A stretch of DNA of 64,000 bases, taken from the NCBI RefSeq assembly GCF_000027125.1, contig NC_017626.1. One strand, given 5' to 3'. This DNA comes from Escherichia coli 042. Lineage in GTDB: Bacteria; Pseudomonadota; Gammaproteobacteria; Enterobacterales; Enterobacteriaceae. A model generated the notes under the pieces. The model saw only the letters and a list, made by a program, of their open reading frames with translations, ran no database searches and was not told the DNA's origin. A program made the position numbers and the translations under genes. Positions 14,606 through 64,000 of this stretch are shown in pieces. How positions within the stretch are numbered: position 1 is the first letter of the stretch; every line of letters begins with the position of its first letter.

Positions 14606-14617
14606 GTAAATAAATAT

Positions 14618-14641
14618 CCTCCGGCATAGCCGGAGGTTTTT
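14618..14641 (+). terminator. Rho-independent terminator after ynaJ
   Basis: CCTCCGGC-ATA-GCCGGAGG hairpin followed by T5. Confidence 0.5.
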
Positions 14642-15330
14642 CAAATGCGCCTATAAGGCTCTCTTACCAGCCGCGCCCTAACAGGCGCACACGATCTGAC
14701 ATTTGCATCCAACTTCGTTACTTACGGCCCGTAAACGGGCTGCCCGGATAGGGAATCGATAACTGCTCTCCCATTTTATCCTCTTCAAGCTGGTGCTTTA
14801 TGTAATCCTGTATCTTCGCCGTGTTCTTACCCACCGTATCGACGTAATACCCTCTGCACCAGAACTCCCTGTTCCTGTATTTGAATTTCAAATCACCAAA
14901 CTGCTCGTAAAGCATCAGACTGCTTTTCCCTTTCAGATATCCCATAAAGCCTGATACGCTCATTTTGGGCGGGATCTCCACAAGCATATGGATATGATCT
15001 GCACAGCATTCAGCTTCCAGAATCCGTACACTTTTCCACTCACACAGCTTTCTCAAAATACAGCCTATTGCTCTACGCTTCTCTCTGTAGAACACCTGTC
15101 TTCGGTATTTTGGCGCAAATACTATGTGATATTTACAGTTCCATCGGGTGTGCGCTAAGCTCTTTTCGTTCCCCATTGGGACCCCCTTTTGATTTCTTGT
15201 TTGACACTTGCAGTTGCCAGACCGCAAGGTGTTTTAACAAATCAAAAGGGGTTTTAATAACTGGCTCAAAGCTGAAAGCTTTCCGGAACCCCCAGCCTAG
15301 CTGGGGGTTTTCTGTGCACAAAAAATAGGC
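14640..15330 (-). mobile_element. IS200-like insertion sequence (IS200/IS605 family); boundaries approximate
   Basis: About 690 bp between ynaJ and uspE terminators containing a Y1 transposase gene and a terminal hairpin CCCCCAGCCTAGCTGGGGG (about 15287..15305). Confidence 0.55.
14718..15176 (-). CDS. tnpA: IS200-type Y1 (HuH) transposase TnpA
   Basis: Start at internal Met with RBS: MGNEKSLAHTRWNCKYHIVFAPKYRRQVFY..., 152 aa; HuH motif HIHML and catalytic Tyr region. Confidence 0.8.
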   Translation of the reverse strand: MGNEKSLAHTRWNCKYHIVFAPKYRRQVFYREKRRAIGCILRKLCEWKSVRILEAECCADHIHMLVEIPPKMSVSGFMGYLKGKSSLMLYEQFGDLKFKYRNREFWCRGYYVDTVGKNTAKIQDYIKHQLEEDKMGEQLSIPYPGSPFTGRK

Positions 15331-16468: not shown

Positions 16469-17221
16469 TCAGGCAACGTTACGCGTATGACCAGCAAGCT
16501 GGGCCAGCGCATCGTTATTTTCGATGGTGATGTATTTACCTTTGACTGCCAGCATACCGCTTTTCTGGAAGCGACCCAGCAGACGGCTGATGGTTTCTAC
16601 CGTCAGGCCCAGATAGTTACCGATATCGCCACGAGTCATCGTCAGGCGGAATTCACGAGGGGAGAAGCCGCGTTGGGCAAAACGACGGGACAGGTTGTAG
16701 ATGAATGCAGCCAGACGTTCCTCGGCATTTTTCTTCGACAACAGCAGGATCATGTCCTGATCGCCTTTGATTTCACCGCTCATCAGACGCATCATCTGCT
16801 GACGCAGATTCGGCATTTTACCAGACAAATCGTCCAGCGTTTCGAACGGGATTTCACATACCATCGAGGTTTCCAGCGCCTGCGCGAAGCTCGGGTGATG
16901 ACCGCTGCCGATAGCGTCAAATCCCACCAGGTCGCCTGCTAAATGGAAACCAGTGATTTGCTCGTCGCCTTGCTCAGTGATGGTATAACTTTTAATCGTA
17001 CCGGAGCGGATGGCATAAAGCGATTTAAGTTCATCTCCAGCCTTAAACAGCGTCTGGCCTTTCTGAATAGGCTTCTTCCGCTCAATGATATTATCAAGCT
17101 GATCAAGCTCATGTTCGTTGAGTGTGAACGGGATGCAAAGCTGGCTGATGCTGCAATCCTGGCAATGGATAGCACAACCGCCAGACTGAATGCGCCGTAT
17201 AATTCGCTTTTCCGGGATCAT
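16469..17221 (-). CDS. fnr: Global anaerobic regulator FNR (CRP/FNR family)
   Basis: 250 aa from [32 protein letters not shown]... with N-terminal Cys cluster and C-terminal HTH. Confidence 0.9.
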
Positions 17222-17415
17222 AGGTCTGCTCAAGCCGTAATTGATATTTGTCAATTTTAACATCTTTTTAGGGAGCAAGTAAGTCTAAGCAAACCTTAAC
17301 AGCAGAGAATTCCGATATTAGATGTAAATATATGTCTATCTATTTGAAAACCCTTAAGTTGTTAAGGGTAACTTTACATAAAAGTGTGAACAAGCTGGCA
17401 CAAATTGTTTAATGT

Positions 17416-23344: not shown

Positions 23345-23351
23345 AACTGCA

Positions 23352-23446
23352 TAAAAAAATAGAGTCTGTCGACATCCGCCAGACTCTACAGTACACACAG
23401 CAGTGCATCCGCGTCTTAAATCCGGCATGGTCTCCTCTGCGCCGGT
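23352..23446 (-). ncRNA. mcaS: Small regulatory RNA McaS (IsrA)
   Basis: Reverse complement reads ACCGGCGCAGAGGAGACCATGCCGGATTTAAGACGCGGATGCACTGCTGTGTGTACTGTAGAGTCTGGCGGATGTCGACAGACTCTATTTTTTT, matching remembered McaS, in abgR-smrA intergenic region with intrinsic terminator. Confidence 0.7.
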
Positions 23447-25723: not shown

Positions 25724-26728
<1,005 letters not shown>

Positions 26729-26774
26729 CAAAAGCAATTTTCCCGGCTGTCTGTATACAAAAACGCCGCAAAGT

Positions 26775-26788
26775 TTGAGCGAAGTCAA
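26775..26788. promoter_or_regulatory. FNR binding site (TTGAGCGAAGTCAA) centred about -42 relative to fnrS
   Basis: Matches TTGAT-N4-ATCAA consensus at 10 of 14 positions. Confidence 0.6.
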
Positions 26789-26823
26789 TAAACTCTCTAC
26801 CCATTCAGGGCAATATCTCTCTT

Positions 26824-26945
26824 GCAGGTGAATGCAACGTCAAGCGATGGGCGTTGCGCTCCATATTGTCTTACTTCCTTTTTTGAATTACTGCATAGCA
26901 CAATTGATTCGTACGACGCCGACTTTGATGAGTCGGCTTTTTTTT
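26824..26945 (+). ncRNA. fnrS: FNR-activated small RNA FnrS
   Basis: Sequence GCAGGTGAATGCAACGTCAAGCGATGGGCG... ending in hairpin GCCGACTTTGATGAGTCGGC plus T-run; position between zntB and dbpA. Confidence 0.8.
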
Positions 26946-27002
26946 GCCTGTTATTTATCAGCGTCTACCCTTTAAGAGTCCACCCAATGACCGGAGGGAA
27001 AT

Positions 27003-27176
27003 ATGACGACACTTATTTATTTGCAAATTCCTGTCCCTGAACCGATTCCTGGCGATCCTGTTCCAGTGCCCGATCCGATCCCTCGCCCGCAACCCATGCC
27101 TGACCCACCACCCGACGAAGAACCGATTAAATTGTCGCATCGTGAGCGTAGATCTGCGAGGATACGCGCCTGCTAA
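27003..27176 (+). CDS. Small proline-rich protein, 57 aa (not in the 60-aa ORF track)
   Basis: ATG 27003 preceded by GGAGGG RBS; translation MTTLIYLQIPVPEPIPGDPVPVPDPIPRPQPMPDPPPDEEPIKLSHRERRSARIRAC. Confidence 0.4.
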   Translation: MTTLIYLQIPVPEPIPGDPVPVPDPIPRPQPMPDPPPDEEPIKLSHRERRSARIRAC

Positions 27177-31246: not shown

Positions 31247-31435
31247 TCACGACGACTGAAGTTTCTCGCAATTAAAATTTATCAGTTTTACTTTCTGCTC
31301 TCTGGAAACGCCTGCTTCTTTTTTACCTGAGAGCATTTTTTCGCATTCTGATTTGGTTAATTTTGTTTTTGAGTACCTTGTCCAGTTAGTAGGAGTGCCA
31401 CCTTCCTTTTCAATAGTGGCGGTAATTTTATACAT
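31247..31435 (-). CDS. ydaC: Rac prophage small protein YdaC-like
   Basis: Start chosen at MYKITATIEK... preceded by GGAGG RBS; start uncertain (in-frame upstream Mets). Confidence 0.55.
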   Translation of the reverse strand: MYKITATIEKEGGTPTNWTRYSKTKLTKSECEKMLSGKKEAGVSREQKVKLINFNCEKLQSS

Positions 31436-43021: not shown

Positions 43022-43258
43022 TTTTATGGAGCACCTTTCTTATTGATTTCATATTGGCGAGGTAGCGGGAGTTAAGTAAAATTGCTGCGGGTGCTTGAGG
43101 CTATCTGCCTCAGGCATGAACACCAAAAGGCAGATAGAGAAAAGCCCCAGTTAACATTACGCGTCCTGCAAGACGCTTAACATTAATCTGAGGCTCAATC
43201 TATGCTGAACACATGTAGGTTAGCCTCTTACGTGCCGAAAGGCAAGGAGAAGCAGGCT

Positions 43259-43414
43259 ATGAAGCAGCAAAAGGCGATGTTAATCGCCCTGATCGTCATC
43301 TGTTTAACCGTCATAGTGACGGCACTGGTAACGAGGAAAGACCTCTGCGAGGTACGAATCCGAACCGGGCAGACGGAGGTCGCTGTCTTCACAGCTTACG
43401 AACCTGAGGAGTAA
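43259..43414 (+). CDS. hokD: Hok-family membrane toxin (type I toxin)
   Basis: 51 aa MKQQKAMLIALIVICLTVIVTALVTRKDLCEVRIRTGQTEVAVFTAYEPEE matches remembered HokD/RelF; in-frame upstream extension from 43202. Confidence 0.8.
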   Translation: MKQQKAMLIALIVICLTVIVTALVTRKDLCEVRIRTGQTEVAVFTAYEPEE

Positions 43415-45665: not shown

Positions 45666-45741
<76 letters not shown>

Positions 45742-45744
45742 TAT

Positions 45745-45819
<75 letters not shown>

Positions 45820-62186: not shown

Positions 62187-64000
62187 ATGGCAGAGCAAAC
62201 CTCGCGTCTCGCAATAATTATTGATAGCACTGGAGCGAAAAATAATGCTGACAATCTGGCCTCCTCATTAGTCAAAATGACGCAGGCTGGGGAAACTGCT
62301 GCAAATAGCGCAGGGAAAGTGACTAAGGCAACAGAAGATGAGAAGAACGCGCTCGCAAAATTAAAAGCAGCTATTGATCCAGTTGGTGCCGCAATTGATA
62401 CTGTCGGTCGACGCTATTCTGAATTAAAGAAATTTTTCGATAAAGGGCTTATTGATAAAGAAGAATATGAATTTCTTGTCCGTAAACTTAATGAAACCAC
62501 AGAGGAATTGAGCGGGGTTGCGCAAGCGCAGAGAGAAGCCGAGAAGGCCGGAAAACTTGCTGCCGCCCAGCAGGAAGCGCAGGCTCAGGTCTTTCAAAGA
62601 ATGCTGGACAAGATCGACCCTCTGGCTGCGGCGCTAAGAAATCTTGAACAACAGCAGGATGAACTTAATGCTGCGTTTGCATCCGGGAAAATAAATGGTT
62701 CTCAGTTTGAGAATTATAGCCGAAAAATACAGGAAACACGGCGAGAGCTTACCGGAGAGGCTCAGGCAGAGCGAGAAGCAGCAAAAGCACATGATGAACA
62801 GGTTGCTGCTTTGCAACGTCTGATTGCTCAACTTGATCCTGTCGGAACTGCTTTTAATCGTCTGGTAGAACAACAGAAACAGCTCAATGAAGCAAAAGCT
62901 AAGGGGATGCTTTCTCCTGAAATGTATGAGGAGCTTTCTGGAAAACTTCGTGCTATGCGGAGTGAGCTTGAGGTTACTCAATCGCAATTAAGCAAAACCG
63001 GAATGTCGGCAAAACAAACGGCTTTTGCTATGCGCATGTTGCCTGCACAAATGACGGATATTGTTGTTGGGTTGTCCACTGGTCAGTCGCCATTTATGGT
63101 GTTAATGCAGCAGGGCGGCCAGCTAAAAGATATGTTCGGTGGGATTGGCCCGGCGATCAAAGGTGTAGGTTCTTATGTGCTGGGATTAATTAATCCTTTT
63201 ACCCTGGCCGCAGCAGCCGTTGGCGTCTTAGGGCTGGCTTACTATAAAGGCTCTCAGGAGCAGGACGAATTTAATAAATCTCTTATTCTTACCGGAAATC
63301 AGTTGGGGACAACCAGCGGGCAATTGGCCGATATAGCTCAACGTGCCGGGAATGCGGCTGATTCGACAACTGGCGCAGCGGCGGCAGTATTAAACCAGCT
63401 TGTGCGTTCGGGAAAGGTAGCGAGCAGTTCGCTGGAGCAAGTGACGACAGCGATAGTAAAAACGAGCGAAGTAACAGGAATATCAACCGAACAACTGGTT
63501 AATGACTTCAATGAAATTGCAAAGGATCCTGTCAGTGCTATATCAAAACTTAATGATCAGTACCATTTTCTGACACTTGCGACTTATAACCAGATTAAGG
63601 CGCTACAGGATGAAGGGAACCAGCAGGAGGCCGCCCGCATTGCGACAGAAGCATACTCATCCTCAATGATCCAGCGCACCAACCAGATTAAAGAAAATCT
63701 TGGTTATCTTGAGACTGCATGGAAAGCTGTCGCAGACTCCGCAAAATGGGCATGGGATTCCATGCTGGATATTGGCCGTGAGGCCTCCCTTGATCAAAAA
63801 ATCTCAGATGTTCTCCGTCAAATTGATGAAATAGAAAAAAATACCCGACCCGGAGTTTTCGGGTTAGGTGGCATTGGAGATGGCGGAGCTCAAAATAAAA
63901 AGCTGGCACGATTAAAGCAGCAATTGGGCGTACTTCAAGCAGAAAAAATTGCTCAGGACGTACTAAATTCATCAATAAACGATTACAACAAGCGACAACA
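62187..64000 (+). CDS. Tail tape measure protein, N-terminal part (continues beyond window)
   Basis: ATG 62187 ([23 protein letters not shown]...), open to window end; coiled-coil rich, internal hydrophobic block, Gly-rich segments. Confidence 0.75.

Follow-up and report, generated by a model that had tools for sequence, protein, structure and literature searches.

The fnrS small RNA gene of Escherichia coli 042 and its class II FNR promoter

Is the small RNA gene that follows zntB in Escherichia coli 042 fnrS itself, and is it transcribed from a promoter of its own on which FNR acts directly? The question was raised by a sequence-only reading of a 64,000-nucleotide stretch of contig NC_017626.1 (hereafter the window), which recognized an fnrS small RNA (sRNA) gene and, upstream of the inferred transcript start, a class II-type FNR site. 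FnrS and its FNR-dependent promoter were reportedly first described in 2010 by Durand and Storz and by Boysen et al., the papers that are also said to have established the Hfq dependence of the RNA; RydD is an earlier name of FnrS.

Identity and place of the FnrS gene

Nucleotides 26824 to 26945 on the plus strand were identical to the fnrS gene of MG1655 (b4699; NC_000913.3, positions 1409129 to 1409250) at 122 of 122 positions, as determined by an exact-sequence match. The whole window was also scanned against Rfam at gathering thresholds, a check proposed along with the original reading. Family RF01796 (frnS, described in Rfam as "Fumarate/nitrate reductase regulator sRNA") matched positions 26824 to 26941 on the plus strand over the full model (positions 1 to 119 of 119), scoring 134.8 bits (E = 4.4e-24) where the gathering threshold is 60. 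The gene begins with GCAGGTGAATGC at 26824 and finishes at 26945 with a G+C-rich hairpin and eight T residues. The full-length family match and the 100% identity to b4699 bear out the claim that the FnrS sequence is intact. The locus is the FnrS gene proper and not a relative of it, and every family-defining feature of FnrS and of a class II promoter that is open to computation is present.

The surroundings of the gene are also those of K-12. The MG1655 annotation places fnrS between zntB and ynaL/dbpA, and the 15.4 kb around the locus were 98.2% identical to MG1655, a figure that shows the strain to be distinct from K-12. In the window, zntB (ydaN; 645 bits) occupies positions 25745 to 26728 on the same strand as fnrS. 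Directly after the fnrS terminator, positions 27003 to 27176 hold ynaL, the gene for a 57-amino-acid proline-rich small protein whose sole family match, to a TonB proline-rich region, was below threshold (20.8 bits versus a cut-off of 315). The RNA sequence, the place between zntB and ynaL-dbpA, the structure, and the promoter are thus all common to K-12 FnrS and the window locus, with no difference in the RNA or in the core promoter. Of 5426 complete E. coli genomes, 5391 contained the 301 bases around fnrS at a coverage of at least 80%. The matches to the fnrS region in E. coli genomes numbered 5402, and six of them fell on records classed as plasmids; some complete genomes carried two copies of the region. 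Open reading frames that overlap fnrS, such as a 47-codon ATG frame at positions 26832 to 26975, were rejected; they cross the terminator and are without any support.

The gene for the activator is carried by the same window, as the original reading had noted when it placed fnr about 10 kb upstream. The fnr gene lies at positions 16469 to 17221 on the minus strand, opposite to fnrS, and the start-to-start distance is 9.6 kb. The gene is intact: it matched NCBIfam NF008365 over 249 of 250 positions with 529.9 bits (cut-off, 228), and its location agrees with the MG1655 annotation. A box with one mismatch to the FNR consensus, TTGATATTTGTCAA, was observed at positions 17241 to 17254, that is, 20 to 33 bp upstream of the fnr start codon at 17221 on the minus strand. 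The fnr gene is negatively autoregulated, and a box in this place fits that behavior.

Several other features of the window were recorded. About 700 bp between ynaJ and uspE (approximately positions 14617 to 15319) are absent from MG1655 and constitute an IS200C element, identified from tnpA as annotated in other E. coli genomes. An Rfam match to STnc490 at positions 15186 to 15309 on the minus strand is part of this element; MG1655 instead carries IS5F just upstream of ynaJ. Rfam matches were also obtained for McaS (23351 to 23446, minus strand), for the Rac prophage antitoxin RNA RalA (31251 to 31429, plus strand), for a sok antitoxin RNA (43089 to 43264, plus strand), and for two adjacent tRNA genes (45666 to 45816, plus strand). 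These matches indicate that a Rac-like prophage region follows ttcA, as in K-12.

Geometry of the fnrS promoter

The FNR box, TTGAGCGAAGTCAA, occupies positions 26775 to 26788. Its half-sites read as the sequence-only reading had given them, with TTGAG at 26775 to 26779, the spacer CGAA, and GTCAA at 26784 to 26788. The box agrees with the consensus TTGAT-N4-ATCAA at 8 of 10 positions and has an exact TTGA-N6-TCAA core. Its center, at 26781.5, is at -42.5 relative to G26824. The reading had put the box about 42 bp upstream of the start; the figure of -42.5 from the annotated +1 agrees with this and is the same as that published by Myers et al. in 2013, who reported (Table 1) an FNR chromatin immunoprecipitation sequencing (ChIP-seq) peak at fnrS with a single FNR site at -42.5 (PMC3688515).

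The position of the start itself is implied by several sources. Park et al. (2013) listed an ArcA site for fnrS with the sequence CTGTTAGTTGTTCTTATTGGTGGTGTTGCTTTATGGTTGCATCGTAGTAAATGG, extending from -155 to -102 (PMC3798270, supplementary tables). This sequence is found exactly at positions 26669 to 26722 of the window, inside the 3′ end of zntB, and the match places +1 at 26824. The RefSeq annotation and the coordinates of the two agreeing ChIP-seq papers all imply that transcription starts at G26824, and none of them is incompatible with the spacing between the box and the start. The regulatory region as published reaches upstream of 26775, to the ArcA site within the end of zntB.

Downstream of the box, the conserved residues A-12 and T-8 (see below) have the four-position spacing of A2 and T6 in a -10 hexamer, and the hexamer was therefore assigned as CAATAT, at positions 26811 to 26816 on the plus strand (-13 to -8). 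It matches the consensus at only 3 of 6 positions, with the key positions A2 and T6 conserved. The distance from the center of the box to the first base of the hexamer is 29.5 bp, which is the canonical class II distance (-41.5 to -12). The center is at -42.5 rather than at the textbook -41.5 because the annotated start is 7, not 6, bases after the -10 hexamer. A usable -35 hexamer is absent because the FNR box overlaps that position. A scan for sigma-70 promoters that required both hexamers found none in positions 26600 to 27100. This result was not counted against the promoter because activator-dependent class II promoters have no -35 hexamer; it is consistent with activator dependence, the activator being bound across the -35 position. 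In agreement with transcription at this site, sigma-70 occupancy at fnrS was reported to be higher without oxygen (PMC3688515, Table 1). A terminator-like site on the minus strand (26813 to 26797) was taken as a chance occurrence, since it sits in the unconserved promoter spacer.

These features were compared with those of known class II FNR promoters. A single box over the -35 position, a weak -10 hexamer, no -35 hexamer, and the distance of 29.5 bp are common to these promoters and to fnrS. At nrfA, narK, caiF, and bssR the site is at -41.5, in contrast to -42.5 for fnrS, while ydhY, also a class II promoter, has its site at -42.5, as in fnrS (PMC3688515). The E. coli fnrS half-sites, TTGAG and GTCAA, differ from the class II consensus half-sites TTGAT and ATCAA; in many other genera the second half-site of fnrS is ATCAA. 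Among class II FNR promoters, that of fnrS is a standard case. Its geometry, its conservation in orthologues, and the published ChIP-seq site (PMC3688515) agree with the original proposal of a class II-type site consistent with direct activation by FNR.

Conservation in Enterobacterales and alternative readings

The sequence of the box is not by itself statistically unusual in the window. Matches to TTGAT-N4-ATCAA with up to two mismatches numbered 61 against 44.7 expected, and the core TTGA-N6-TCAA occurred 3 times against 1.7 expected, at 17241, 26775, and 62968. The third of these exact cores, TTGAGGTTACTCAA, spans positions 62968 to 62981. Since the motif counts were not significant, comparative evidence was sought.

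A collection of species-representative genomes was scanned with the pattern AAGCGATGNNCGNTGNNNTCCATA, which lies inside the FnrS 5′ hairpin, and yielded at least 120 loci. Of the loci listed, the 114 that combined sufficient flanking sequence with the FnrS 5′ end GCAGGTGAA were kept; matches in a cyanobacterial metagenome-assembled genome (L041) and in Dechloromonas (L060) were chance occurrences of the pattern and were excluded. The set covers Escherichia, Citrobacter, Enterobacter, Klebsiella, Yersinia, Serratia, Erwinia, Pantoea, Pectobacterium, Dickeya, Edwardsiella, Hafnia, Photorhabdus, Arsenophonus, and other genera, and the 114 listed upstream regions all differ from one another. Ninety upstream columns were anchored, gap free, on the RNA 5′ end, and since the promoter is outside the search pattern, conservation of the box is an independent test.

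Three conserved islands were found upstream of the RNA in the 114 listed loci, in columns -64 to -61 (an A-tract), -49 to -36 (the box), and -14 to -8 (GCAatAT). Within the box, T-48 was present in 113 of the 114, G-47 in 110, T-39 and C-38 in 109 each, A-37 in 111, and A-36 in 112. Within the -10 region, A-12 was kept in 111 and T-8 in 110, and the hexamer variants among the listed orthologues were CAATAT, CAAACT, CACTAT, CATGAT, and CATTAT. Columns -30 to -25, by comparison, held at most 0.13 bits in these orthologues; the spacer between the box and the -10 hexamer drifts freely.

The position of the box was equally constant. The TTGA-N6-TCAA core was kept at exactly -49 to -36 in 102 of the 114 listed orthologues. 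When the best match to the FNR consensus was located between -90 and -15, it was centered at -42.5 in 109 of the 114 listed loci; three others had it at -41.5 and one at -43.5. Its score was 8 or 9 of 10 in 112 of the 114, while only 4.8% of shuffled upstream regions reached a score of at least 8 anywhere. By this comparison, it is the position and conservation of the box, and not its sequence alone, that exceed chance. The alignments show selection on the box, the -10 hexamer, and the terminator across the order. In a few species, those of loci L003, L011, and L084 (Yersinia) and of L110 and L118, the box lay one base off its usual distance from the RNA 5′ end (center at -41.5 or -43.5), which suggests either tolerance of small spacer indels or a start that moves along with the box.

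The A-tract, just upstream of the FNR box at positions 26760 to 26763 of the window, had A in 85, 92, 105, and 95 of the 114 listed orthologues at its four columns. Beyond it, most upstream columns were near random, and toward the box there was only a gradual decay. Class II promoters of the CRP/FNR family have the C-terminal domain of the polymerase alpha subunit located immediately upstream of the activator dimer. That the A-tract is a functional promoter element, most plausibly contacted by this domain, is a tentative proposal and on balance a doubtful one. A possible function, which we infer from the orthologue columns, is that of an UP-like contact for the alpha C-terminal domain. Alternatively, the A-tract could belong to a site at which CRP or some other factor acts to modulate fnrS.

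We considered whether the box might be used mainly by CRP, an FNR paralogue that recognizes TGTGA-N6-TCACA, with the FNR dependence being indirect. The inner TGA-N6-TCA is common to both consensus sequences, and CRP has been reported to affect fnrS expression, negatively (PMC8139620; PMC4350180). However, the reported effect is repression and not activation. At the outer positions, which discriminate between the two proteins, the box is of the FNR type in the listed orthologues, with T-48 in 113 of 114, where CRP prefers G, and A-36 in 112 of 114. Because these positions are FNR type and the FNR ChIP-seq peak covers the site (PMC3688515), use of the box mainly by CRP is highly improbable.

A second alternative is that FnrS is released by cleavage from the 3′ end of zntB read-through transcripts and that the box is incidental. 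The gene arrangement offers some grounds for this: zntB ends at 26728, 96 bp upstream of fnrS and on the same strand, the terminator scan found no terminator-like site on that strand between the two genes, and a zntB homologue lies directly upstream in 96 of 103 orthologous loci among the matches listed. Yet the box and the -10 hexamer stand at a fixed distance from the RNA 5′ end in otherwise drifting sequence, which indicates a promoter, and the seven listed loci without zntB upstream retain both elements. Further, sigma-70 occupancy at the fnrS site rises in the absence of oxygen (PMC3688515). We give processing from zntB transcripts as little credence as use of the box by CRP, and a promoter belonging to fnrS itself is the preferred reading. 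Transcripts of zntB may end at the fnrS terminator, and the zntB-fnrS linkage might reflect functional coupling (shared termination, read-through) rather than mere inheritance; on the other side of the gene, dbpA was downstream of fnrS in only 32 of 98 loci among the matches listed.

The least probable reading, that the box is a functionless chance match of a kind that is common in the window (61 with up to two mismatches against 45 expected, 3 exact cores against 1.7), is excluded by the conservation data, since the position is kept in 109 of the 114 listed species at 8 to 9 of 10 when 4.8% of shuffles reach at least 8, and ChIP-seq shows FNR occupancy at the box (PMC3688515).

The RNA downstream of this promoter (26824 to 26945, plus strand) was analyzed in the same orthologues. 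Minimum free energy (MFE) and centroid folds agreed with the Rfam consensus structure in giving a 5′ hairpin, a linker, a middle hairpin, and a terminator. The 5′ hairpin spans nucleotides 10 to 35 (26833 to 26858, plus strand), and the middle hairpin, present in the MFE fold and the Rfam consensus, spans nucleotides 62 to 87 (26885 to 26910, plus strand). Between them, the single-stranded C/U-rich linker UUACUUCCUUUUUU, the target-pairing region (about nucleotides 47 to 61; 26870 to 26884, plus strand), has no pairs in the Rfam consensus and few in the MFE fold, and is kept in the listed orthologues. Pairing at a ribosome binding site was shown for FnrS by the U61A mutation and a compensatory change in yieP (PMC11340327). 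The rho-independent terminator, found by the terminator scan and in the fold, consists of a stem-loop at 26918 to 26937 on the plus strand (8 pairs, including 5 G-C pairs) followed by TTTTTTTT, with the U8 tail at 26938 to 26945.

The fold energy of FnrS gave a z-score of -1.67 against shuffled sequences, only a modest advantage, and covariation in the orthologues was used instead. Among the 93 distinct RNAs in the matches listed, the terminator pair 26922/26933 was GC in 42, AU in 41, and GU in 8, and the pair 26923/26932 was CG in 63 and UA in 28. This covariation argues strongly for the terminator, and these compensatory changes, together with the terminator scan and the RNA fold, agree with the earlier description of the terminator as intact. 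The 5′ hairpin appeared in the RNAalifold consensus of the 93 distinct listed orthologues; it was near invariant, with few changes on both sides, and covariation was uninformative there because the sequence is too conserved. The middle hairpin was absent from the same RNAalifold consensus because the alignment has indels in that region. The first 80 or so nucleotides were near invariant across the 93 distinct FnrS RNAs among the matches listed, conservation that is partly due to sample selection in the part of the RNA around the 5′ hairpin, since the search pattern lies inside it.

Regulation by FNR through FnrS and its significance

We are confident, to the point of near certainty, that fnrS has a class II FNR-dependent sigma-70 promoter of its own and is transcribed from it in the following way; none of the observations speaks against this. 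In the absence of oxygen, dimeric [4Fe-4S] FNR would bind the box at 26775 to 26788. As the box overlaps the -35 position, FNR would stand in for the -35 element and recruit RNA polymerase to the weak -10 hexamer CAATAT (26811 to 26816). Transcription from G26824 to the terminator at 26918 to 26945 would yield a 122-nucleotide RNA. In an Hfq-dependent manner, the conserved 5′ part of FnrS and its C/U-rich linker would pair with ribosome binding regions in mRNAs that encode functions not needed without oxygen, and translation of these targets would be repressed. FNR, an activator at this promoter, would thus repress genes indirectly. Binding of ArcA at -155 to -102 would add to activation, and CRP would lower expression.

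The identity of the RNA, the geometry of the promoter, the conservation of the box, the -10 hexamer, and the terminator, and the presence of fnr come from the present analysis. FNR dependence and target repression were published for the identical K-12 sequence, according to the passages that cite this work in PMC3688515, PMC8139620, and PMC11340327. For fnrS, FNR is described as the main activator, ArcA as an additional activator, and CRP as repressing (review PMC8139620; PMC3798270), and the levels of more than 30 mRNAs, which encode functions that the cell can do without when oxygen is absent, drop after induction of FnrS (PMC8139620, PMC3798270).

The same circuit design is seen with other regulators. 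RyhB with Fur (where the logic is reversed), ArcZ with ArcA, and Spot 42 with CRP resemble FnrS in that an Hfq-dependent base-pairing sRNA gives a transcription factor indirect negative control, although their regulators, signals, and target sets differ from those of FnrS. NarS is, like FnrS, an FNR-dependent sRNA, but it is processed from the 3′ end of narK mRNA, whereas FnrS has its own promoter.

The fnrS gene and its FNR promoter are already known, and finding them here is ordinary; FNR binding at fnrS was confirmed genome-wide in 2013 (PMC3688515). Two minor features, the conserved A-tract and the tight linkage of zntB to fnrS, are the only ones for which no description was found in the literature. 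The sRNA gene, its terminator, and the activator site were recognized correctly from raw sequence, which makes the locus a useful calibration point. In engineered E. coli, the fnrS promoter is used as a switch that is induced anaerobically. The 114 listed species give a clean footprint of this promoter, consisting of the box, the -10 hexamer, and the A-tract, and this footprint could guide the design of minimal promoters.
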